A stretch of 64,000 nt of DNA from Acidobacteriota bacterium. Lineage in GTDB: Bacteria > Acidobacteriota > CAIWXX01. The stretch lies in assembly GCA_040755995.1 (NCBI GenBank), contig JBFMAF010000023.1:160001-224000 (forward strand), written 5' to 3'. The notes below the pieces were generated by a model. That model searched no databases, had not been told where the DNA came from, and saw nothing but the letters and a program-made list of their open reading frames with translations. Below are positions 35,480 through 64,000 of the stretch, piece after piece. Position numbers and translations under genes: made by a program. How positions within the stretch are numbered: position 1 is the stretch's first letter; every line of letters starts with the position of its first letter.

Positions 35480-35968
35480 TCATCTGCGAGCCTCACCGGC
35501 CAGAATCAGAATGCGCCTGCACAGATCGTCAGATAGACGATAGCCGTTGTCGCGCAGTTCATGGAGCGCCGCGTCGACGCGATGGATGAAGCCCTTCCGC
35601 TTCGCGGCGATCAGAACACGGCCGGTGCCGATCACACGGACCCCCCTTTTCCTGGCGGCGATTCGCCCCCGGCGCTCATCGACGAGCAGGAGACAATGCA
35701 TCTCCTCGGCCAACCGGATCGCCTGTGATTCTCCGGGATCAAGACATGCGATCGGCAGGCCGATCTGCGGGCCTCTGGGGCGCAGCCACTTGCCTTGGCT
35801 GAGGGCTTGCTCGAGTAGAAGAATCCCTGGCCGTTTCTCGCCAAGGCGGAGCTCCACGAGCACCGCCTGCGGAATGAAGACCTTGCCGAACAGCCCACGA
35901 AGAAGGGCCAACCGTCCGATCCGCGACAGGGCGATCAAAGGTCCGGCGTCAGAGACGACCGGTTTCAT
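35480..35968 (-). CDS. DUF3368-type PIN domain protein (putative toxin)
   Basis: VVSDAGPLIAL, LDPGESQAI, LLVDERRGR and GTGRVLIAAKRKG. Confidence 0.88.
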   Translation of the reverse strand: MKPVVSDAGPLIALSRIGRLALLRGLFGKVFIPQAVLVELRLGEKRPGILLLEQALSQGKWLRPRGPQIGLPIACLDPGESQAIRLAEEMHCLLLVDERRGRIAARKRGVRVIGTGRVLIAAKRKGFIHRVDAALHELRDNGYRLSDDLCRRILILAGEARR

Positions 35969-36306
35969 CAGATCTTGATCTTCATCTCCGCCCGGAGCTC
36001 ATCCGGCGGATAGTCAACCGCGGTGATGCCACTCGCCGCGAGCATATCCATGAATCTGTCCAGTGGGAGGCCGGCCATCTTTGCCGCCTTGGCCATTGTG
36101 ATCAAACCGCGTTCGAACAGGCATAGGGCCAAGTCCTTGTCCAGTCCGAGGTGGACAAGCCTTTCGTCGAACGGCACCGTCAGCGCCTCGGGCTTGCCTC
36201 TCTTGGTCAGGACGGAGAGTCGGCCGGCTTCCGCTCCCTTGATCAGGTCGCTGGACCGAAGTCTGAGGTCACGCACAGAGAAGACGTCCACCCCGTTTCT
36301 TCTCAT
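35968..36306 (-). CDS. Putative antitoxin: Phd/YefM-like N-terminus plus UPF0175-like C-terminus
   Basis: SVRDLR...VLTKRGKPEA, then ITMAKAAKMAGL...FMDML...DY.PDEL; TGATG-coupled to the PIN gene. Confidence 0.82.
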   Translation of the reverse strand: MRRNGVDVFSVRDLRLRSSDLIKGAEAGRLSVLTKRGKPEALTVPFDERLVHLGLDKDLALCLFERGLITMAKAAKMAGLPLDRFMDMLAASGITAVDYPPDELRAEMKIKI

Positions 36307-36443
36307 GGATTCACCCCCGCTTGATGTCACAACGAATCGTAGCACAAATCAGCGCCGCCTCCAAGGCCCCGGCTGGCGCGGGGGCCGATGGTCTCGACAC
36401 TCTGAACCGAGCAGGCGCGGGGCACAGGGCGCGCGGCGGCGGC

Positions 36444-53224: not shown

Positions 53225-53253
53225 TTGACGAATCCAGGGTGCCAACCTATTCT
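53225..53253 (+). promoter_or_regulatory. Putative sigma70 promoter of the hydrogenase operon
   Basis: TTGACG-17 nt-TATTCT; AAAGATCTTT palindrome just upstream at 53205-53214. Confidence 0.6.
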
Positions 53254-53311
53254 ACCCGGCAATGGCTGCGAATCCACCAATGCGGCTTTGCACTTTCAAC
53301 AGGAGGTGATT

Positions 53312-54421
53312 GTGGGCAAACCCATCGAATGCCTGACTCACTTTGACCGTGAAGAGGCACGGGGAGTGAGCCGGCGGGATTTCGTCAAGATCTGCACCAT
53401 GGCCGCTGCGTCACTCGGCTTACCGGCATGGGTCGGCGAGAAGATGGCGCAGGCCGCGGCCGCAGGGAAGCTGAGACCCTCGGTCGTCTGGCTGCACTTC
53501 CAGGAATGTACGGGGTGCACTGAGACTCTTCTCAGGACCACCCACCCGGCGTTGGCCGAGCTGATTCTGGATCTCATCTCACTCGACTACCACGAGACCG
53601 TATCGGCCGCCGCCGGAGATCAAATCGAGGAAAATCTGAAAAACACGATCGAAGCCAACGCAGGGAAGTTCATCTGCGTGATCGAGGGTGCCATACCCAC
53701 CAAGGACAACGGGATCTACTGCAAGATCGGAGGACGGACGGCTCTGGAGATCGCCAACGAAGTCGCCGAAAAAGCCGCTGCTATCATTGCTATTGGTTCA
53801 TGCGCGTCATTCGGCGGCCTCGCCGCGGCGGATCCGAATCCGACCGGAGCGGCGGGAGCCCCGCAGGTGCTCAAGGGCAAGCCCGTGGTGACGATTCCCG
53901 GATGTCCTCCGAATCCGTACAACTTCCTCGGAGTGGCCTTGCAGTACGCTACGTTGGGCAGCCTGCCGGCCCTGGACGAATTGGGGCGTCCGGCCTTCGC
54001 CTATGCGCGTACGATCCACGAGGACTGCCCGAGGCGGCCGCACTTCGACGCCGGCCGGTTCGCGGAGAAATTCGGCGACCAGGGGCATCGGGATGGGTAC
54101 TGCCTCTACAGGCTGGGATGCAAGGGCCCGGGCACGCACGCCAACTGCTCGATCCAGAATTTCAACGAGGTGGGCGCATGGCCGGTGGGTGTGGGGCACC
54201 CGTGCGCAGGGTGCACGGAACAGCAGCACGCGTTCCGCACGGCGCTCTTCACCACGATCGAGATCGAGCGGCCGACGCCGCCTGACACCTATCCGCCGAT
54301 CGAGGCCAAGCAGGGCGGCATCGGAACGCTGGCCGTGGGCTTCGCCGGTCTGGTTGGAGGCGCGCTCCTCGGAGCCGGCTACGCCACGTCCAGGAAGCTG
54401 GGAGAGGAGAAGGAGAAGTAG
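53312..54421 (+). CDS. hybO: [NiFe]-hydrogenase small subunit, Tat-exported with C-terminal TM
   Basis: AGGAGG RBS and GTG start; SRRDFVK, ECTGCTE, PGCPPNP, HEDCPRR and CLYRLGCKGP. Confidence 0.92.
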   Translation: MGKPIECLTHFDREEARGVSRRDFVKICTMAAASLGLPAWVGEKMAQAAAAGKLRPSVVWLHFQECTGCTETLLRTTHPALAELILDLISLDYHETVSAAAGDQIEENLKNTIEANAGKFICVIEGAIPTKDNGIYCKIGGRTALEIANEVAEKAAAIIAIGSCASFGGLAAADPNPTGAAGAPQVLKGKPVVTIPGCPPNPYNFLGVALQYATLGSLPALDELGRPAFAYARTIHEDCPRRPHFDAGRFAEKFGDQGHRDGYCLYRLGCKGPGTHANCSIQNFNEVGAWPVGVGHPCAGCTEQQHAFRTALFTTIEIERPTPPDTYPPIEAKQGGIGTLAVGFAGLVGGALLGAGYATSRKLGEEKEK

Positions 54422-54422
54422 C

Positions 54423-55301
54423 ATGCCCATCGATCGACGCTCCGTTCTGAAAGGACTGGTAGCGGCGGGAGGGGTGGCTGTCGCGAGTGGTGCGAGCACG
54501 GTTGCGGCGCGGGAGCGCAAGGCGCCTCCGGATGACGCGGTTGGAATGCTCTATGACGCAACGCGCTGTATCGGCTGCAAGGCTTGTGTCGTGAAGTGCA
54601 AGGAGGCCAACGGATTGCCCCCGGATGCCCCGGACGGCCTGCACGATGCGCCGGTCGACCTCAACGCCTCGACAAAGAACATCATCAAGCTCTACAAGGA
54701 TGCCGACCGGATTTCGTACATGAAGGCGCAGTGCATGCATTGCGTCGATCCGGCGTGCGTATCGGTTTGCATGTTCGGCTCCTTGCAGAAGGGCGAGCTT
54801 GGCATTGTGACCTACAATCCCGACCGGTGCCTGGGCTGCCGCTACTGCCAGGTCGCCTGCCCGTTCAACGTTCCGAAGTTCGAGTGGTCGAAGGCGGTGC
54901 CGCAGATAGTGAAGTGCGAGATGTGCCGTCATCTGATCGCGAAGGGCGGGCAGCCGGCTTGCTGCGAGGTCTGCCCCCGGGAAGCAGTGATCTACGGGAA
55001 GCTCGCCGATCTGAAGGCAGACGCCAGGGATCGGCTGGCGAAGAACCCGGATCGATATGTGCAGAAAGTGTACGGCGATACCGACGGCGGAGGCACGCAG
55101 GTGATCTGTCTCTCGGCCGTCCCGTTCGAACTCCTCGGGCTTCCGGATCTCGGCGACGAGCCTGTGCCGAAGCTGTCCGAGACCATCCAGCACGGCGTCT
55201 ACTACGGCTTCATCCCGCCGGTGGTTCTCTATGGGGCACTGGGATTGGTGATGCTCCGCAACCGGAAGCGTGGAGGGACGGGTGAGGAGGTGAAGAAATG
55301 A
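54423..55301 (+). CDS. hybA: Hydrogenase-2 type polyferredoxin subunit
   Basis: Tat motif DRRSVLK; four Fe-S cysteine groups; SETIQHGVY before the C-terminal TM. Confidence 0.92.
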   Translation: MPIDRRSVLKGLVAAGGVAVASGASTVAARERKAPPDDAVGMLYDATRCIGCKACVVKCKEANGLPPDAPDGLHDAPVDLNASTKNIIKLYKDADRISYMKAQCMHCVDPACVSVCMFGSLQKGELGIVTYNPDRCLGCRYCQVACPFNVPKFEWSKAVPQIVKCEMCRHLIAKGGQPACCEVCPREAVIYGKLADLKADARDRLAKNPDRYVQKVYGDTDGGGTQVICLSAVPFELLGLPDLGDEPVPKLSETIQHGVYYGFIPPVVLYGALGLVMLRNRKRGGTGEEVKK

Positions 55302-56485
55302 GCGAGCACGCACATCCTGCGCCCGTCGGCGGCGACATCCTCACGAAGCCGTTCAAGATCATTCTGGCGATCTTCGGTCTCGGCGCCGTGCTGATTCTCT
55401 GGCGCTACGCTACCGGGCTGGGCTCGGTCACTGCTCTGAACGACGGCTATCCCTGGGGAATCTGGATCGCGTTCGATGTCGTTGCGGGAACCGCTCTGGC
55501 CTGCGGCGGCTACGCCGTCGCCATTCTCTGTTACATCCTGAACAAGGGCGAGTACCATCCGCTGGTGCGCCCCGCGGTTCTGACGAGCGCACTGGGCTAC
55601 TCAGTCGCTGCCGTCGCCATCGCGGTTGACGTCGGCCGTTACTGGAACCTATATCTGGCCGCATTGCCGTGGAAGTGGAACCTCAACTCGGTTCTCCTCG
55701 AAGTGGCTCTGTGCGTCATGTCCTACATCGTCGTGCTGTGGATAGAGATGTCCCCTGCCTTCATGGAGGTCTGGAAGGACGGCAAGCAGCCGTTTCTGCG
55801 GCGGGCTTCTCAGAGCGCCTATCCGATTGTCAACAAAGCCCTGATCTGGATTCTCGCCCTCGGCATCCTGCTTCCCACGATGCACCAGTCGTCACTGGGC
55901 TCCGTCTTCCTGGTCTCTACGACGAAGCTCCACAAGCTCTGGCATACGCCATTGCTGCCGTTGCTTTTCCTGATCTCGTGCATCGCCCTCGGCTATGCCG
56001 CGGTCGTCTTCGAGGCGACTCTCTCGAGCATCGCGTTCAAGAAGGTGCGGGAGACGAAGATGTTGGCCTCGCTCTCGGGCGTCATGGCGATAGTGCTGGC
56101 CATCTACCTCGGTATTCGTTTTCTCGACCTGATCTTCCGTGGCAGGCTCGGGCTGATGTTCAAGCCGGATCTCTATGCGCTGTTTTTCTGGATCGAAGTG
56201 GTCCTGTTCGCCGCGCCCGCGCTCATGCTGATGTCGAAGGCGTCGCGGGCGAGCGCAGGAAACCAGTTCCGGGCGGCCATCTTGATGATGCTCGCCGGAG
56301 TCCTGTACCGCTTCGATGTTTATCTGATCGGGTACAACCCGGGTGCCGGCTGGTCCTACTTCCCGTCGATACCGGAGATGCTCATCACGTTCGGCGTGGT
56401 CTCGCTCGAGATCATGGCCTACATTTACATCGTGAAGCGATTCCCGGTTCTCGCCGGCGGCACCGCAACAAGTTCGCCACGGTAG
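55298..56485 (+). CDS. hybB: NrfD/PsrC-family membrane subunit
   Basis: LNDGYPWGIWIAFDV, YHPLVRPA and LPTMHQSSLG; about 10 TM. Confidence 0.92.
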   Translation: MSEHAHPAPVGGDILTKPFKIILAIFGLGAVLILWRYATGLGSVTALNDGYPWGIWIAFDVVAGTALACGGYAVAILCYILNKGEYHPLVRPAVLTSALGYSVAAVAIAVDVGRYWNLYLAALPWKWNLNSVLLEVALCVMSYIVVLWIEMSPAFMEVWKDGKQPFLRRASQSAYPIVNKALIWILALGILLPTMHQSSLGSVFLVSTTKLHKLWHTPLLPLLFLISCIALGYAAVVFEATLSSIAFKKVRETKMLASLSGVMAIVLAIYLGIRFLDLIFRGRLGLMFKPDLYALFFWIEVVLFAAPALMLMSKASRASAGNQFRAAILMMLAGVLYRFDVYLIGYNPGAGWSYFPSIPEMLITFGVVSLEIMAYIYIVKRFPVLAGGTATSSPR

Positions 56486-56495
56486 GAAGGAGCTC

Positions 56496-58190
56496 ATGAG
56501 AATCACCGTAGATCCAATCACAAGAATAGAAGGCCACCTGCGCATCGACTGCGAAGTCGACGGCGGGGCTGTCCGGGACGCCTGGTCCTCCGGGCAGATG
56601 TGGCGTGGAATCGAAGTCATGCTCAGGGGGCGCGATCCGCGCGACGCGCAATTCTTCACTCAGCGGTCCTGCGGCGTGTGCACGACGGTTCACGCGCTGG
56701 CCTCCGTGCGCGCCGTCGAGAACGCACTCGACATGGAGATCCCGCTCAACGCGCAGTACATCCGAAACATGATCGTCCTGGCCCACGCACTGCACGATCA
56801 CATCGTCCACTTCTATCACCTGTGCGCGCTCGACTGGGTGGACGTCGTATCCGCATTGCAGGGCGATCCCGCCAAGGCATCGAGTCTCGCCGAGAGCCTC
56901 TCGCCGTGGCCGCGCAACAGCAAGAAGGAGCTCGAGGCGGTCAAGGCGAAGCTGAAGGCATTCGTGGACAGCGGGCAGCTCGGCCCCTTCGCCAACGGCT
57001 ACTGGGGACACCCGGCATACAAGCTTCCGCCCGAAGTCAACCTGCTGGCGGTGGCTCACTACCTGCAGGCGCTCGAGTACCAGCGAATCCCGAACATGGC
57101 CGTCGGCATCCTCGGCGGCAAGACTCCACATATCCAGAACCTTACGGTCGGTGGGGTGTCCAATGCCGTGAACCTGGACAACGCCGCGGCCCTCAATATG
57201 GAGAGACTCTTTTGGGTGAAGGACCTGCTCGAACAGACCGCCGCGTTCGTTCAGCAGGTGTACTTCATCGACATGTGCGCCGTCGGGGCCATGTACGCGG
57301 ACTGGGTCAAGTACGGCGCGGGTGTCAAGAACTACCTCGCAGTCCCCGACCTGCCGCTCGACACCAAGGGAACCAAATTCGACATGCCTGGCGGCGTGAT
57401 CGTCGACGGCAATCTGGAGGGTGTGAAGCCAATCGCCAGCTTCCAGGACACGTTCTTCAAGGACAACGTCAAGGAGTCCATCGCGTGCTCCTGGTACGAC
57501 GGCAACTGGTCGCGCCATCCGTACGAAGAGGAGACCGCACCCAAGTACAGCGACTACGACCCGAGCGGGAAGTACTCGTGGGTCAAGGCTCCTCGCTTCG
57601 ACGGCCGGCCGATGCAGGTGGGACCGCTTTCGCAGGTGCTGGTGGCTTTCGCACAGGGAGACGAGCTCACCACGACATGGGCCGTCAAGGCGCTCGAAAC
57701 CGTGGGCGCCATCGCGGGGGCCAAGCTGACTCCCGCCATCCTCCATTCCACAATCGGAAGGATCGCTGCACGCTCCATCCGGTGCGCCGTCATGTCCGAG
57801 CTGGCGCTGAAACACTGGCAGATGCTCGTCGAGAACATCGGCAAGGGCGATACGGCGACCTTCAACGCGCCGACGTTCCCGAGCGGCGAACAGAAGGGCT
57901 TCGGCTTCCACGAAGCGCCTCGCGGGACCCTCTCTCACTGGATCGTGATCCGCGACGGCAAGATCGCGAACTACCAGCAGGTGGTACCGTCGACATGGAA
58001 CGCTGGACCGCGCGACGAGAAGGGGCAGAAGGGGCCGTACGAGGCGTGCCTCGTCGGCAATCCCATCGCCGATCCCAAGCGCCCGCTCGAAGTGCTGCGC
58101 ACGATCCACTCGTTCGACCCGTGCCTCGCGTGCGCCATACACACGCACGATGCGGAAGGGAACGAGGTGGGGCAGGCAAGGGTGCTGTAG
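56496..58190 (+). CDS. hybC: [NiFe]-hydrogenase large subunit (group 1, Hyb-type)
   Basis: DPITRIEGH, L1 QRSCGVC, L2 SFDPCLACAIH and a cleavable C-terminal tail. Confidence 0.95.
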   Translation: MRITVDPITRIEGHLRIDCEVDGGAVRDAWSSGQMWRGIEVMLRGRDPRDAQFFTQRSCGVCTTVHALASVRAVENALDMEIPLNAQYIRNMIVLAHALHDHIVHFYHLCALDWVDVVSALQGDPAKASSLAESLSPWPRNSKKELEAVKAKLKAFVDSGQLGPFANGYWGHPAYKLPPEVNLLAVAHYLQALEYQRIPNMAVGILGGKTPHIQNLTVGGVSNAVNLDNAAALNMERLFWVKDLLEQTAAFVQQVYFIDMCAVGAMYADWVKYGAGVKNYLAVPDLPLDTKGTKFDMPGGVIVDGNLEGVKPIASFQDTFFKDNVKESIACSWYDGNWSRHPYEEETAPKYSDYDPSGKYSWVKAPRFDGRPMQVGPLSQVLVAFAQGDELTTTWAVKALETVGAIAGAKLTPAILHSTIGRIAARSIRCAVMSELALKHWQMLVENIGKGDTATFNAPTFPSGEQKGFGFHEAPRGTLSHWIVIRDGKIANYQQVVPSTWNAGPRDEKGQKGPYEACLVGNPIADPKRPLEVLRTIHSFDPCLACAIHTHDAEGNEVGQARVL

Positions 58191-58213
58191 AGCCGGTCGA
58201 GGGCAAACAGGGT

Positions 58214-58242
58214 GGGCTCGGGACGTCGGGCGTCCCGAGCCC
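58214..58242 (+). terminator. Strong intercistronic hairpin (terminator or stabiliser) after hybC
   Basis: GGGCTCGGGACG-TCGGG-CGTCCCGAGCCC 12-bp stem; only a weak U-tract. Confidence 0.5.
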
Positions 58243-58289
58243 GGCCCATCTTCTTCACCTGCGAGCGGGGCACTTCTGGGCACCAACCC

Positions 58290-58841
58290 GTGAATCGAAT
58301 CAGGATCATCGGCATCGGAAATGTCTTGATGGGTGACGACGCGCTCGGCCCATACATGGTCCAGATTCTCGAGAGCGCATATGCCTTTCCCGAGGATGTG
58401 ACGTTGATCGATGCCGGAACGCCGGGACTCGACCTGACCGCTTTCTTCATGGGCACACAGGCGGTGATAGTGGTAGACACGGTGCGGGCCAAGGGCGATG
58501 CGGGTGAAGTGCGGCTCTATCGTCGCGAGGAACTGCTCCGGAGTCCGCTCGGGGTTCGGCTGAGCCCGCATGATCCCGGGCTGAACCAGGCGCTGCGCGC
58601 GGCGGAATTCCACGGGGACGCGCCGCGAGACGTCCTGCTCGTGGGCGTGATTCCCGAACGCGTTGACACGGGCGCGGGACTGAGTCAGGCTGTGCGGCGT
58701 GCGCTCCCGCGAGTCGAAGCGGAGATACTGCGCGAGCTGGCGCGATTCGGCGTAGTCCCGACTGTGCGCAAGCCCAGAAAGGAGCCCGACATCTGGTGGG
58801 AGCGAGAACCCGGTGCACCCAGGCAAGAGCCGGCGACCTGA
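58290..58841 (+). CDS. hybD: Hydrogenase maturation protease
   Basis: IGIGNVLMGDDALG, DAGTPG, VVD and SPHDPG. Confidence 0.9.
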   Translation: MNRIRIIGIGNVLMGDDALGPYMVQILESAYAFPEDVTLIDAGTPGLDLTAFFMGTQAVIVVDTVRAKGDAGEVRLYRREELLRSPLGVRLSPHDPGLNQALRAAEFHGDAPRDVLLVGVIPERVDTGAGLSQAVRRALPRVEAEILRELARFGVVPTVRKPRKEPDIWWEREPGAPRQEPAT

Positions 58842-59441: not shown

Positions 59442-60353
59442 ATGGATACGTTGCGTGACAGGTACTTGAACCCGTTCACGGACTTCGGGTTCAAGAAGAT
59501 ATTCGGCACGGAGCTGAACAAGGACTTGCTCATCGATTTCCTGAACGAGGTGATACGCGAGCGTGGCCGAATCACGGACGTGAACTACCGTGTCACCGAG
59601 CAACTTGGCATCATGGAGGCGGACAGGCGTGCGATATTCGACATCTACTGCCAGAGCGAAAGCGGGGAGAGGTTCATAGTAGAGTTGCAGAAGGCCAAGC
59701 AGAACTACTTCAGGGACCGGAGCATATACTACGCCACATTTCCAATCCAAGAGCAGGCGCAGAAGGGAGAGTGGGATTACAGGCTCGATCCCGTCTACAT
59801 GGTAGGAGTCCTCGACTTTGTGTTCAACGACGAGCACCGGGACAAGACGGTCGTAACCGAAGTGAGGCTGATGGACACCCGAACAAGAGAAGTCTTCTAT
59901 GACAAGCTGGCGTTCATCTACCTGCAGATGCCCAATTTCACGAAGGTTGAGGAGCAGCTCGAGACGCATTTCGACAAGTGGCTGTATGTTCTCAAGCATC
60001 TGCCGGACCTCCAGGAGCGGCCTGCGAGGCTTCAAGAACGCGTCTTCGCGCGTTTGTTCGAGATTGCGGAGATCGCGAAGTTCACAGCCGAGGAGAGGCA
60101 CGCCTACGAGGACAGCCTGAAGCATTACAGAGACCTGAAGAACACGATCGATACCGCGCGCGAAGAGGGGCGTGCTGAAGGAGAGCAGATCGGATTGGAG
60201 AAAGGCCGGGCCCAAGGCGAGCATGACGGAATCAAGATGGGCAAGATCGAGGTCGCTCGCGCACTGCTGAGCCGGGGCATGAATGAGGCGGAAATCTCAC
60301 GGCTGACTGGGCTGCCCCAGGAGGAGATCGAACGTATCGCGAAGGGCCGGTAA
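59442..60353 (+). CDS. Rpn family PD-(D/E)XK nuclease / putative transposase
   Basis: NPFTDFGFKKIFG, FDIYC....GERFIVELQ, RSIYY, and C-terminal EEG/EKG repeats with LTGL..EEI. Confidence 0.92.
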   Translation: MDTLRDRYLNPFTDFGFKKIFGTELNKDLLIDFLNEVIRERGRITDVNYRVTEQLGIMEADRRAIFDIYCQSESGERFIVELQKAKQNYFRDRSIYYATFPIQEQAQKGEWDYRLDPVYMVGVLDFVFNDEHRDKTVVTEVRLMDTRTREVFYDKLAFIYLQMPNFTKVEEQLETHFDKWLYVLKHLPDLQERPARLQERVFARLFEIAEIAKFTAEERHAYEDSLKHYRDLKNTIDTAREEGRAEGEQIGLEKGRAQGEHDGIKMGKIEVARALLSRGMNEAEISRLTGLPQEEIERIAKGR

Positions 60354-60436
60354 GGCCTGCTCTGCCCATGGCTTTCGAGTGCCACGGCTGCAACTCTCAA
60401 CTCTGGACGTCAAGCGCGGCCAGGACGGCCTCGGGA

Positions 60437-60622
60437 GCTTCATCGCTCCGAGGCCGCGCCTCGCTAGCAGGCTTCGGCAGAAAAAGATGTTGCGATTGAG
60501 TCGATGCTGCAGCGGCGCGTCATTGGCTCTGAAGTCCCACGGTAGTCACTGTCGACTCGCGACGCGAGGCGTGGTGAGAGCGGTCCTGCACGCTTCATCG
60601 GTCTGAGGCCGCGCCTCGCTAG
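60437..60622. repeat. 31-bp direct repeat pair (29/31 identical)
   Basis: GCTTCATCGCTCCGAGGCCGCGCCTCGCTAG at 60437-60467 and GCTTCATCGGTCTGAGGCCGCGCCTCGCTAG at 60592-60622. Confidence 0.75.
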
Positions 60623-61161
60623 TAGTCGCTGTCGAGCTCGATGTTCCAGTACAGGTAGTCCCGCCAGCATTCCGGCGTACTGTGTATGGACAGTTTCACC
60701 GTCACGCGAGGCAGCCAACCCGGCCGCTCCGGCTTCCTCACGAGCTTCATCCCGGACTGAGAAGGCGTACGCCCGCCCTTCTTGCGATTGCATTCGATGC
60801 AGCAGGTCACGATGTTCTCCCACCGCTTCTCGCCGCCCAGAGAAACCGGGATCACGTGGTCGAAGGTAAGATCCTCTGTGGAGTACTTCTGGCCGCAGTA
60901 CTGGCAGCGGTGGTCGTCGCGGGCGTAGATGTTTGCCCGCGAGAACTTGACCCACCTTGCTGGAGGCTTGACCTTGATGAACCGCAGCAGTCGCAGCACC
61001 GCCGGAAGCTTGAAGGTGATCGAGATCGAGCGGATCTCCTGCTCGTACTCCTCGACCACCTCCACCTTGCCCTGGCAGAGCAGACGGATGGCCTTCTGCC
61101 ACGCGATGATCTTCAGCGGCTCATAGGTGGCATTCAGTAGCAGCGCCGGCGCGTAACTCAT
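60619..61161 (-). CDS. HNH endonuclease (McrA-like, zinc-binding)
   Basis: LLLNATYEPL, P.VLRL, RDDHRCQYCG, TFDHVIP.S.GG and WENIVTCCIECNRKKG. Confidence 0.92.
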   Translation of the reverse strand: MSYAPALLLNATYEPLKIIAWQKAIRLLCQGKVEVVEEYEQEIRSISITFKLPAVLRLLRFIKVKPPARWVKFSRANIYARDDHRCQYCGQKYSTEDLTFDHVIPVSLGGEKRWENIVTCCIECNRKKGGRTPSQSGMKLVRKPERPGWLPRVTVKLSIHSTPECWRDYLYWNIELDSDY

Positions 61162-61185
61162 CGGAGATGCCTCACAAGCGGACAC

Positions 61186-61214
61186 ATTTTACTACCCATG
61201 TCAAGTCTATGCAA
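61186..61214 (-). promoter_or_regulatory. Putative sigma70 promoter of the HNH gene
   Basis: Minus strand TTGCAT-17 nt-TAAAAT. Confidence 0.55.
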
Positions 61215-61576
61215 GATTCAGGCCAACAAACCAACGATCTACCGGGCCTGCAGCCGGCGAAGATCCGCTGCTTCGATGCCCGCAGCATTCCTCCTGCCTC
61301 GCGACGGATAGCCGATCTTCGCAAGCCGGCGGCGGCGAATCCTCTGTTCCGAGAGCTCAGTGGCACGGCACCCAATGTCCAGATTTCCCACCTGTGCGTC
61401 CGCAATCGCAGACGCAAGATCGTTGCAATCGGGCCGTCGGACGAACTGAAGCGAACCAGCGAACCGGTGGGACTTGAACCGTGCCTCCGATGGGTCTAAG
61501 ATGGCACCGGCGATCGAGGGAACCTGATAAGCCCGCGCCGAAATCATAGTGCACTGGCGAGGCGTGGTTTGCATAC

Positions 61577-64000
61577 ATGAGTAGGTTTGAGGCGGATGTC
61601 AAAGTCCTGGACGTTTCGTATTTCAATCACACGCAGAAGAGGAACGGTGAAGAGGAAAAATTCCCCGTTCTCGAGATATTCGGGCGCACCAGGGAAGGCC
61701 AGAGCATCACGCTGCTCTACCCGCGCTTCTATCCGTACTTCTACATCCTGAATCCGACTGCGCAGGCGCAGAAGGAGCTCTCCGGCGACGCCCGGGTCAG
61801 GGCGGTCGAGCCGGCTGTGCTCCTGCACGATTCCAAGGAGGCACCGGCTCTCAAGGTGACTCTGTATGTACCGGGCGACACGCCGGAGTACCGGGACCGC
61901 TACGGTGGAATCGCCGCCGACATTCTTTTCCGCTTCCGCTTCATGTTCGACATGGATCTGGGCTACTGCATTCACGCGCGCGGAAGCGAGCTTGCGAACC
62001 GGCAGATGGGAGGCCGCACGTACCTCTCTTCGACTCTCGTGCACCTGGAGGAAGCCGGGGAGATCCCGTACTTCACCTCGCCGCTGAACATCCTCTCGTT
62101 CGACATCGAGAACGTCATCGGAGGCGAGATCCTGTGCATCGGCCTGGTCTCTCAGTTCGGCGAGAAGATGGAGACCCGTGTGCTGGACGGGGGCGAGCGG
62201 AAGGTGTTGGAGGACTTCATACGCATCGTCAAGACCGAGGACTACGACATCCTCTCGGGATACAACATCTGCAACTACGACCTGCCGTATATGGAGATGC
62301 GCGCGCAGAAGCTGGGCATCAACATGGATATCGGGCGAAATCTGCGCTCGATGCTCGTCAGGGAAAAAGGCGGCGGCAGCCGGAACGGCGAGAAGCGTTT
62401 TGTCGACAAGGGGACCAGCAAGACCGTCGAGATAGCCGGGCGGGTAGTGGTGGACAGCTGGTACTTCGCGCGCAAGGAGAAGCGTCCGAAGCGCGAGACG
62501 CTTTCAGCAATGGCGCAGATGATCCTGGGCAAAGACAAGCTCCCGATGGACACGTTGAAGCTGAAGGAGGAATGGGCGAAGGACGCCGAGCGCGTGAAGG
62601 AGTATTGCCTGCAGGACACCGTACTATCGCACGAGATTCTGGAAAAGATCCGGGTGGTGCAGAAATACGAGGCGCTTGCATCGGTTGCGCGGTTGTCTCT
62701 GGCCGATGCCTTTTGCGACCGCAACAGCGTGTATATCGATTCGCTGTTCATTCGGGAGGCCGACCGGGAGCACGTGGCGGTGCCCAACATGCGTCGTTCG
62801 ACCAACGGGGATGAGGAATCGATCGAAGGCGGTTACGTGCACCAACCCTCTCCGGGCCTCTATGACCGCGTGATCGTCTTCGACTTCGCGTCGCTGTATC
62901 CGAGTGTCATCCTGGAGAACAACATCTGCGCGACCACCCTCTCGGAGAATGGCACTATCGTGTCTCCGCTGGGGGTTCGCTTCCTGGCTCCTGACGTGAA
63001 GCAGGGGATGCTGCCGCGTATCATGCGGCGCCTGTTGCAGGCCCGCAGGGAGAGCAAGAAGCTGATGAAGCAGGCGGCCAGTCCGGAGGAGAAGGACTTC
63101 TACAACCGGCTGCAAAACGCCCAGAAGATCCTCGCCAATGCGCACTTCGGCGTCTTCAGCTCCAGGTTCTACCGCTTCACCGACCAGCGAATCGGCGGGT
63201 CGATTACAGCTTTCGCCCGGCAGGGCACCAAGGGTCTCATCGAAACGCTGACGAAGGACGGCCACAAGGTCGTCTACTCGGACACAGATTCGCTCTTCGT
63301 CGTCTCCCCGCACACCGACCTGCAGAAGACGATCGAGTTCGGTGAGACGGTCGTGGAGCGGTTCAGCCATGGAGACATTCGTCTGGAGATGGAGAAGGTG
63401 ATGGATCCGCTCTTCCTGAGCTCGGCGAAAAAAAGGTACTTCGGCAAGATCGTCTGGCCGGGCCCCGGCGAGATCTTCGTGCGCGGTTTCGAGACCAGGC
63501 GCGGTGACAGCTTCGACATGCAGACGAAGAGCCTGGAGATGCTATTCGAGTACATCCTGAACCGCGACCCGGACGGTGCCGTCGAATTCTGCCGGCAAGT
63601 CCTCCGCGATCTCGACCAGGGCAATGTTGCCCTTGAAGACCTGGTCATATCGAAGACCGCGGCCGATCCCAACACGTACAAGGTGATCGAGGAGGAGACC
63701 GAGTCATCCCTGTTCGGCGTGAAGACCGTGACGAAGCGCCGTGTGGCCGACAGCCTGCCCATCGTTCAGGCCGTCGAGAAGGCGCAGAACCTCGGCGAAG
63801 TCATCTCGCCCGGGATGAAGGTCAGCTGGATCGTCGTCGACTCCCGCATGACCCCGCAGCGAGTAGAGCCCTACATCGACGGCAAGAAGTTCAACTACAC
63901 GCCCGATTACGAGTACTACCGAGAGCGCCTTCTCGACAGCTACCTGCGCGTGCTCGACGTCTTCGACGTCCGGAGAGATGACCTGGCCGAATCGCGCCAG
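61577..64000 (+). CDS. polB: Family B DNA polymerase, archaeal-like; 3'-truncated by the window edge (808 codons seen)
   Basis: Hand-translated, no stop to the window end. ExoI FDIE, ExoII YNICNYD, ExoIII YCLQD; motif A DFASLYPS (62882), B KILANAHFG (63125), C YSDTDS (63275), KKRY and RGFETRRGD. Confidence 0.93.
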   Translation, partial: MSRFEADVKVLDVSYFNHTQKRNGEEEKFPVLEIFGRTREGQSITLLYPRFYPYFYILNPTAQAQKELSGDARVRAVEPAVLLHDSKEAPALKVTLYVPGDTPEYRDRYGGIAADILFRFRFMFDMDLGYCIHARGSELANRQMGGRTYLSSTLVHLEEAGEIPYFTSPLNILSFDIENVIGGEILCIGLVSQFGEKMETRVLDGGERKVLEDFIRIVKTEDYDILSGYNICNYDLPYMEMRAQKLGINMDIGRNLRSMLVREKGGGSRNGEKRFVDKGTSKTVEIAGRVVVDSWYFARKEKRPKRETLSAMAQMILGKDKLPMDTLKLKEEWAKDAERVKEYCLQDTVLSHEILEKIRVVQKYEALASVARLSLADAFCDRNSVYIDSLFIREADREHVAVPNMRRSTNGDEESIEGGYVHQPSPGLYDRVIVFDFASLYPSVILENNICATTLSENGTIVSPLGVRFLAPDVKQGMLPRIMRRLLQARRESKKLMKQAASPEEKDFYNRLQNAQKILANAHFGVFSSRFYRFTDQRIGGSITAFARQGTKGLIETLTKDGHKVVYSDTDSLFVVSPHTDLQKTIEFGETVVERFSHGDIRLEMEKVMDPLFLSSAKKRYFGKIVWPGPGEIFVRGFETRRGDSFDMQTKSLEMLFEYILNRDPDGAVEFCRQVLRDLDQGNVALEDLVISKTAADPNTYKVIEEETESSLFGVKTVTKRRVADSLPIVQAVEKAQNLGEVISPGMKVSWIVVDSRMTPQRVEPYIDGKKFNYTPDYEYYRERLLDSYLRVLDVFDVRRDDLAESRQ

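Follow-up and report, generated by a model that had tools for sequence, protein, structure and literature searches.

The window analyzed here is a stretch of 64,000 nucleotides (positions 160001–224000 of a 339,033-bp contig) from the genome of an Acidobacteriota bacterium. It ends inside a gene for a family B DNA polymerase (PolB) that, judged from sequence kinship, is closest to the PolBs of the archaeal Thermoplasmatota. The protein closes with QLSLF, a pentapeptide of the beta-clamp type, and searches of the seven genomes that carry this PolB, which belong to two distant bacterial lineages, found the polymerase domain of DNA polymerase I (Pol I) in none of them. We consider it rather probable that this clamp-tethered, proofreading polymerase has taken the place of Pol I in maturing Okazaki fragments and filling gaps, a function that we infer.

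The polymerase gene and its product

The gene starts with ATG on the plus strand, and in a listing of open reading frames (ORFs) that allowed open ends its frame runs for 808 amino acids (61577..64000), with the 3' end open at the window edge. On the parent contig the frame closes 15 nt beyond the window, and the complete product has 812 amino acids with the C-terminus ...ESRQLSLF. The gene was missing from the original ORF track, probably because that list was made without frames running off the end. The source genome (7.7 Mb in 56 contigs) is 99.84% complete with an estimated contamination of 3%, and a profile search found this to be its single family B gene. The G+C content at third codon positions (GC3) is 0.83 in the PolB gene and mostly 0.7–0.88 in its neighbors; overall GC is about 0.60 in the gene versus 0.626 in the genome. 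The parts of the gene are listed below with the evidence for each, all on the plus strand.

61577..64000, +, family B DNA polymerase gene, codons 1–808 of 812 (ORF listing, translation, Pfam)
61577..62071, +, N-terminal domain, about residues 1–165, as in archaeal PolBs (predicted local distance difference test (pLDDT) of the model 91–97; full-length Foldseek alignment to Thermococcales PolB)
62099..62113, +, Exo I, FDIEN, with D176 and E178 (translation; both residues invariant in 71 sequences)
62264..62281, +, Exo II, NICNYD, with N230 and D235 (translation, alignments of 16 and 71 sequences)
62603..62617, +, Exo III, YCLQD, with Y343 and D347 (translation, alignments of 16 and 71)
62882..62905, +, polymerase motif A, DFASLYPS, with D436 (translation, alignments of 16 and 71)
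63125..63151, +, polymerase motif B, KILANAHFG, with K517, N521 and G525 (translation, alignments of 16 and 71)
63275..63292, +, polymerase motif C, YSDTDS, with D569 and D571 (translation, alignments of 16 and 71)
63428..63439, +, KKRY motif, K618–Y621 (translation, alignments of 16 and 71)
63998..64000, +, codon of Q808, first residue of the predicted clamp-binding pentapeptide QLSLF (contig reading, alignments, complex model)
64001–64015 (parent-contig continuation of the window numbering), +, last four codons LSLF and stop (contig reading)

The names Exo I–III and Pol A, B and C are those that we take to belong to these PolB strings. The key residues of Exo I–III, motifs A–C and KKRY show no or almost no variation in the alignments of 16 and 71 sequences, and the protein matches the Pfam families DNA_pol_B (E 6.5e-55, 187.1 bits with a cut-off of 23) and DNA_pol_B_exo1 (E 7.7e-15, 55.4 bits with a cut-off of 23). 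An AlphaFold2 model made from the 71-sequence alignment has a mean pLDDT of 91.7 and a predicted template-modeling (TM) score of 0.87. Compared by Foldseek over its whole length, the model resembles the Thermococcales PolBs (KOD, 9°N, Tgo, Pfu and P. abyssi) with TM scores of 0.80–0.86, and Pol delta comes close behind. With its motifs intact, the protein is predicted, with fair confidence, to be an active and proofreading family B DNA polymerase.

A sequence-only reading of this DNA had reported an uninterrupted frame of 808 codons up to the window edge, a full set of exonuclease and polymerase motifs, and GC-rich codon usage like that of the neighboring genes. The ORF listing, the translation, the two alignments and a GC3 within the range of the neighbors agree with it on each of these points, and all of the strings that it quoted occur in the translation (LDVSY, EIFGRTREGQSIT, FYPYFY, FYRFTDQRIGGSITAFAR, YSDTDS, KKRYFGKIVWP, RGFETRRGDSFD and PGMKVSWIV...TPQRVEPY...PDYEYY).

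Relationship to archaeal polymerases

When the protein was searched against the sequences of the PDB, Pol delta and Thermococcales PolBs were matched at about 1e-50, followed by Sulfolobus Pol I (1s5j) at 4e-22 and Escherichia coli Pol II at 7e-22; no Pol epsilon chain was among the best 60 of the 110 matches. The BLASTP alignment with E. coli Pol II has 26% identity over 580 columns. Scores against the NCBIfam equivalog models for Pol II fall far below their cut-offs (NF004421, 182 versus 570 bits; NF004422, 126 versus 1103; NF004420, 107 versus 1435), and the archaeal Pol I equivalog model likewise scores below its own.

A word-indexed protein search scored 8000 candidates, 248 of them at E <= 0.001, and the relatives described here were taken from the best 120 of these 248. 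The closest are five proteins at 70–75% identity, one of which is named ‘Acidobacteria bacterium, DNA polymerase II’. A second tier consists of ten proteins at 53–55% (one named ‘bacterium’) plus one fragment of 550 amino acids. The next tier is a large set of PolBs at 38–43% identity in which all seven members with an organism name are from Thermoplasmatota, given as Thermoplasmata, Thermoplasmatales or Methanomassiliicoccales. Below this tier there is a gap, and then eukaryotic Pol delta follows at 26–31%. An exhaustive search of cluster representatives was concordant, with 57% identity for the top match and 44% for the second.

Phylogenetic trees were inferred with FastTree (166 rows), with a quick IQ-TREE run (65 rows) and with a careful IQ-TREE run under LG+G4 (44 rows, 21 of the 65 being omitted). 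E. coli Pol II was used as the outgroup, and the rows include no B1 or B2 references. In all three trees the bacterial clade is monophyletic (100/100) with a stem of 0.40–0.51 changes per column. The careful tree places it within a clade of 26 rows (100/99) that holds all of the named Thermoplasmatota, and this in turn lies within a clade of 36 rows (100/100) whose sister comprises PolBs named Thermococci, Sulfolobaceae (783 aa), Altiarchaeota and Methanosarcinales. The maximum-likelihood trees of 65 and 44 rows nest the bacterial clade among archaeal-type rows. Most of the rows near the clade are metagenome proteins without an organism name, whose archaeal source is read from their PCNA-interacting (PIP)-like tails only.

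On this sequence evidence we regard the bacterial clade as closest to Thermoplasmatota-type PolBs. The sequence-only reading had called the protein Thermoplasmata-like rather than a Pol II, and the named relatives, the trees and the NCBIfam scores all point the same way, since the clade groups with the Thermoplasmatota PolBs and not within bacterial Pol II clades. Its more specific label, PolB3, is covered only in part. PolB3 has been defined as the PolB of all archaea except Thaumarchaeota (Makarova 2014), and a PolB3-like assignment would follow from that definition, from the sister clade of Thermococci and Sulfolobaceae type and from the ranking of the PDB matches, in trees that hold neither B1 nor B2. 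The accompanying suggestion of an old archaea-to-bacteria transfer that has since been ameliorated is supported by the kinship, the trees and the GC3 of 0.83.

A bacterial clamp motif at the C-terminus

The bacterial clade has 16 full-length members, each of which carries Q[LM]xLF at its end, in one case with a single extra residue. The consensus is QLGLF, with QLSLF in the present protein, and the C-terminus of E. coli Pol II is also QLGLF. The beta-clamp consensus is QL[SD]LF. In the corresponding alignment columns the archaeal relatives show Q..L..[FWY] boxes, often of the form QxxLFxF, which we call PIP-like after the PIP consensus, and the named Thermoplasmatota have an additional Lys-rich tail that ends in LTLEDFF. 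Because the bacterial motif is found at the aligned site of the archaeal PIP-like box, it appears to have arisen in place, via truncation and a few substitutions. The more general form QxxLF has been described as a beta-clamp motif (PMC12926913). In the source genome, profile searches found one DnaN and no match to PCNA_N, and the end of the PolB, being QLSLF, holds no archaeal PCNA-interacting box.

We modeled the complex between DnaN (from a six-row alignment) and PolB residues 740–812 (from a 16-row alignment) in three runs. The scores were 0.72, 0.72 and 0.73, with 0.01 for the best control; the mark of 0.72 is reached by 116 of 157 solved complexes and by 2 of 215 mismatched pairs. The runs share at least 70% of their contacts, and the pLDDT of the partner is 50–68. 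On the PolB side the modeled interface consists of residues 807–812 only, and on the DnaN side it is formed by residues 170–175, 243–248, 321, 345–347 and 363–368. The model supports, rather than shows, docking of the PolB on the host DnaN clamp via QLSLF.

Two metagenome proteins in the archaeal-type part of the trees, P0149 and P0086, have nothing beyond a QLKLF or QSRLF tail, and they could represent either additional bacterial carriers or forms from archaea that are pre-adapted to a beta-clamp-type motif.

Distribution of the polymerase and absence of Pol I

Besides the source genome (G000 where genomes have to be told apart), orthologues are found in the two other genomes of its family (3 of 3 including the source) at 72–74% identity, and in four Lindowbacteria-type genomes at 55–57%. 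These six other carrier assemblies are metagenome-assembled genomes (MAGs), two labeled Acidobacteria, two Candidatus Lindowbacteria and two unclassified bacteria. The contigs that carry the gene are up to 392 kb long, and on the 392-kb one rpoD is near the PolB gene. The clade was found in three of the 401 genomes of a phylum-wide sample and in four of the 41 relatives of G062, which represent the second lineage.

The DnaN of the source genome is 51–54% identical to those of its own family, mostly 30–40% (range 24–40%) identical to those of genomes in the same phylum that have Pol I, and 27–29% identical to those of the Lindowbacteria-type carriers. By this single marker the two carrier lineages would not be each other's closest kin. 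The low identity of DnaN between the lineages (27–29%), as opposed to 55–57% for the PolB, favors a later bacterium-to-bacterium transfer and two separate losses of Pol I, without settling the matter.

The Pol I polymerase domain (PF00476) had no match in the 99.84% complete source genome, and the same search found it in all 10 bacterial controls. With the Pol I proteins of four relatives as tblastn queries, only their first ~238 residues match the source genome, at C49:89328-90032. The gene at this place encodes a stand-alone 5'-nuclease of 297 amino acids with both 5_3_exonuc domains. Such a gene is present in all six carriers tested, the other five having open frames of 304–366 amino acids, and it has been reported that bacteria without Pol I mostly keep a solo 5'-nuclease (PMC12926913).

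Among 61 relatives of the source genome, 58 have PF00476, and the three without it (G000, G001 and G002) are exactly the PolB carriers. In the phylum-wide sample, 395 of 401 genomes, mostly at least 90% complete, have the domain; those without are the three carriers, G112, G183 and G339, which leaves 395 of 398 non-carriers with it. The two phylum samples differ slightly, a completeness floor having been applied only in the Pol I sample. For the second lineage, PF00476 is found in 34 of the 41 relatives of G062 and is missing from the four carriers, G067, G072 and G091; 34 of 37 non-carriers thus have it. A search of the carriers of this lineage found it in none of five genome records, of which G061 is apparently G002 again. 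Altogether, the domain was not found in seven of seven carriers. The unpublished genomes G025, G048 and G193 are counted as Pol I-bearing non-carriers, and the pattern is independent of them.

Other types of PolB occur in the same groups of bacteria. G091 and G112, two of the non-carriers without PF00476, both have one. In G091, a relative of the Lindowbacteria-type lineage, it is a divergent PolB with EIDTDG as motif C, which is the glutamate signature of the bacterial PolB group G3 (see the last section), and here, too, a PolB may be substituting for Pol I. A second, separate archaeal-like PolB group is found within the phylum of the source genome, in G028, G043, G008, G026 and G112. The proteins of G028, G043, G008 and G112 have YGDTDS as motif C, are 23–26% identical to the present PolB and end before any clamp box; that of G112 shows 39% identity to a PolB named Sulfolobaceae and 36% to one named Thermococci. 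Pol I is likewise present in G008, G026, G028 and G043, and in G112 (93% complete) PF00476 was not found.

Proposed role and alternatives

We propose that a Thermoplasmatota-type PolB entered bacteria and that its gene has become established in the chromosome of a deep lineage labeled Acidobacteria. The PCNA-type box of the protein would have been remodeled in place into QLSLF, and given this C-terminus we propose that the polymerase is tethered to the host DnaN clamp. Together with the free flap endonuclease (FEN)-like 5'-nuclease and ligase, it would do the work of Pol I, that is, strand-displacement synthesis at RNA primers during Okazaki-fragment maturation, and repair gap filling. The set-up would mirror that of PolB, Fen1 and ligase in PolD-using archaea; Okazaki maturation in Thermococcus needs PolB, a flap endonuclease and ligase (PMC4432273). 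We are evenly divided on the history that may lie behind it, which would comprise one entry into bacteria, conversion of the PCNA box into a beta-clamp motif, inheritance or transfer between the two lineages, and Pol I becoming dispensable in each with the free 5'-nuclease left.

Several points weigh against this proposal. Approximately unbiased (AU) tests do not reject trees in which the bacteria lie outside all of the inner archaeal-type rows (p 0.63 when compared with a poorly searched tree, and p 0.24, at a log-likelihood lower by 21 units, when compared with the careful tree). As these tests are not significant, we call the clade ‘closest to’ Thermoplasmatota-type PolBs and not ‘nested in’ them. 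The docking score may reflect memory, since clamp–peptide complexes have already been solved. The phyletic pattern has at most two independent events behind it, because kin are not independent, and the completeness of the four Lindowbacteria-type carriers is not reported. Pol I can evidently be lost without this PolB, as G339 (100% complete), G183, G067 and G072 have neither PF00476 nor the family B domain PF00136. The source genome has two DnaE-type genes (PF07733), one of them full-length with an open frame of 1084 amino acids, and these are possible gap fillers. Finally, some bacteria have been reported to be viable without Pol I polymerase activity when a 5'-nuclease is present (PMC12926913), so that the PolB may be a passenger.

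Several of these points would also fit an accessory polymerase for repair, restart or translesion synthesis like E. coli Pol II, with the loss of Pol I being coincidental and DnaE-type or other enzymes filling in. This is the strongest of the alternatives, and we regard it as possible but doubtful. Bacterial PolBs have been described in general terms as non-essential accessory enzymes, and the groups G1 and G3 among them also have beta-clamp motifs and active proofreading (PMC12926913). The two PF07733 genes and the genomes that lack both Pol I and this PolB would be in keeping with such a role, and DnaE has been described to use strand displacement in Okazaki repair (2026 preprint PMC13082043). 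Against the accessory role stands the strict complementarity, with PF00476 in none of seven carriers versus 395 of 398 and 34 of 37 other genomes, in carrier lineages that are not closest kin by DnaN identity. Other PolB types, moreover, co-occur with Pol I in G008, G026, G028 and G043.

The clamp motif and the proofreading exonuclease would also suit a second replicative polymerase, one that divides the bulk of leading- or lagging-strand synthesis with Pol III in the way known for PolB in some archaea, and archaeal PolB takes part in lagging-strand synthesis (PMC13136892). We consider this improbable, as the genome has a full-length DnaE (1084 aa) and DnaN, C-family replicases are present in all bacterial species surveyed (PMC12926913), and no other archaeal replisome part was seen in a genome that has no PCNA_N match.

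Genomic context

The PolB gene lies 221 kb into the 339-kb contig and is flanked on either side by bacterial genes, and dnaN follows 105 kb further along. The features on its upstream side are:

35483–36345, −, small adjacent gene pair with DUF3368 and UPF0175 domain matches, which we take to be of the toxin-antitoxin type
53225–58838, +, [NiFe] hydrogenase operon (small subunit, 4Fe-4S protein, NrfD-like membrane subunit, large subunit, maturation protease)
59442–60350, +, PDDEXK_2 (PD-(D/E)XK) transposase-like gene (E 3.5e-75), where GC drops locally to 0.57; it is placed after the hydrogenase operon and before the HNH gene
60622–61185, −, small HNH endonuclease (Pfam)
61167–61499, +, and 61239–61574, −, overlapping spacer ORFs of 110–111 aa with no Pfam match; the GC3 of the minus-strand ORF is low (0.67)

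Farther upstream there are glycosyltransferases, an RNB-domain (RNase R/II-type) ribonuclease and phosphoglucose isomerase. A 390-bp spacer (61186–61576) separates the divergent HNH and PolB genes. Scanning 60300–61800 for promoters and terminators gave no sigma-70-like promoter and a single terminator-like site, a yield that does not exceed that of shuffled sequences. Downstream of the PolB follow folB, a zinc-ribbon protein, ATP-binding cassette (ABC) transporter genes, an exopolysaccharide tyrosine-kinase-like gene and ftsE/ftsX-like genes. The sequence-only reading had allowed for a system extending beyond the window, and this does not hold, as only 15 nt of the gene lie past the edge, with folB next.

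The HNH endonuclease was considered as a partner of the PolB and rejected. It occurs in 42 of 61 phylum genomes, including holders of Pol I, and the copy in G002 is on a different contig. The HNH proteins of G000 and G001 are 84% identical, which exceeds the values for PolB (72–74%) and DnaN (51–54%) across the family.

The PDDEXK_2 gene, with its GC of 0.57, and the HNH gene just upstream raise the question of whether the PolB could be cargo of a mobile element or defense island (casposon, pipolin, prophage or transposon) that does not serve the host chromosome. We regard this as very unlikely. No Cas1, integrase, phage, casposon or DNA_pol_B_2 families were found in 35 kb upstream or 19 kb downstream, which upholds the earlier statement that phage and casposon hallmark genes are lacking on the left and extends it to the right, and the PolB protein itself has no match to DNA_pol_B_2 (terminal-protein type). 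At five other PolB loci the neighborhood is each time a different one, made of housekeeping genes, and PDDEXK_2 is absent among the flanking ORFs scanned with Pfam there. The wide occurrence of the HNH gene, on another contig in G002, and the host-like GC3 also speak against mobile cargo.

An archaeal fragment joined to a bacterial contig by assembly or binning, for which the 56 contigs and the estimated contamination of 3% leave some room, is the least credible explanation of all, in view of the mid-contig position between bacterial flanks with dnaN on the same contig, the host-like GC3, the bacterial clamp motif at the tail, and the orthologues in six other bacterial assemblies (72–74% in two family genomes and 55–57% in four more, one on the 392-kb contig near rpoD); the chimeric join that the sequence-only reading had named as a danger is thus unlikely.

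Significance

Pol I is among the most conserved bacterial enzymes, and in a 2026 survey of more than 3000 complete genomes A-family polymerases were found in 96% of species (PMC12926913). If the proposal is true, Pol I would here have been displaced in nature by a non-orthologous enzyme of family B. A free-living lineage with genomes of 5–8 Mb, no Pol I found and a clamp-adapted PolB of archaeal descent would amount to a natural experiment in the exchange of replication parts across domains, and its sequences would show how a PCNA-binding tail turns into a beta-clamp-binding tail. The clade would be a fourth group of full-length bacterial PolBs beside G1–G3, and the enzyme would be a mesophile-encoded, clamp-compatible and, as predicted, proofreading relative of the archaeal PolBs that are used in biotechnology.

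A literature search found no paper on this clade, its clamp motif or its link with the loss of Pol I. The clade is not described in the main texts of the 2020 (PMC7544198) and 2026 surveys, and a group assignment elsewhere in the 2020 supplement is possible; a Lindowbacteria member appears in Table S2 of the 2020 survey with the label ‘PolBmain’ and, in that part of the table, no group label.

Comparison with known systems

The Thermoplasmatota PolBs share with the present protein the domain order (N-terminal, exonuclease, polymerase), the catalytic motifs, 38–46% identity over the full length and a common clade. They differ in having an archaeal host and in their Lys-rich tail and LTLEDFF-type box, both of which are missing here. 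In the present PolB, QLSLF occupies the site that the first Q..L..F box has in the archaeal proteins, and the bacterial clade is set apart by its long stem (0.40–0.51).

Three groups of bacterial PolB have been distinguished, namely G1 (Pol II), G2 (of archaeal B2 origin, the exonuclease being degenerate) and G3 (EpsilonN-like) (PMC7544198). Further minor groups, none of them with the N-terminal domain, come from the 2026 survey of complete genomes (PMC12926913). By its sequence features, the present clade appears to fit none of G1–G3 and none of these minor groups. Like this PolB, E. coli Pol II (G1) is a bacterial family B enzyme with proofreading and a C-terminal QLxLF (QLGLF in E. coli). 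It is an SOS-inducible accessory enzyme (PMC12926913), and the two proteins are only ~26% identical over 580 columns, with the NCBIfam equivalog scores here below the cut-offs. In addition, the E. coli genome has both PF00136 and PF00476, whereas Pol I was not found here. Group G2 offers a precedent for a family B polymerase that passed from archaea to bacteria (PMC7544198). The G2 enzymes lack Exo III and a conserved Exo I and have one Asp in motif C, and a translesion role has been proposed for them (PMC7544198); the present PolB, in contrast, has every exonuclease motif, and its motif C contains both Asp residues. Group G3 agrees with the present PolB in full-length architecture, active sites and a beta-clamp motif (PMC12926913) and differs in a conserved Glu in motif C (PMC7544198), where the present protein has YSDTDS.

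For the proposed job, the closest comparisons are with Pol I itself and with the archaeal maturation system. Pol I (family A) would share the job, primer removal with a 5'-nuclease and gap filling, and its 5'-nuclease module is kept separately here. It belongs to an unrelated fold family, whereas the polymerase described here is predicted to be clamp-tethered and its 5'-nuclease is not fused. Okazaki-fragment maturation by PolB, Fen1 and ligase in Thermococcus has the same mechanism as the one proposed (PMC4432273, PMC13136892), but it uses PCNA and the archaeal Fen1, in place of which the bacterium would use its own beta clamp and a Pol I-type 5'-nuclease.

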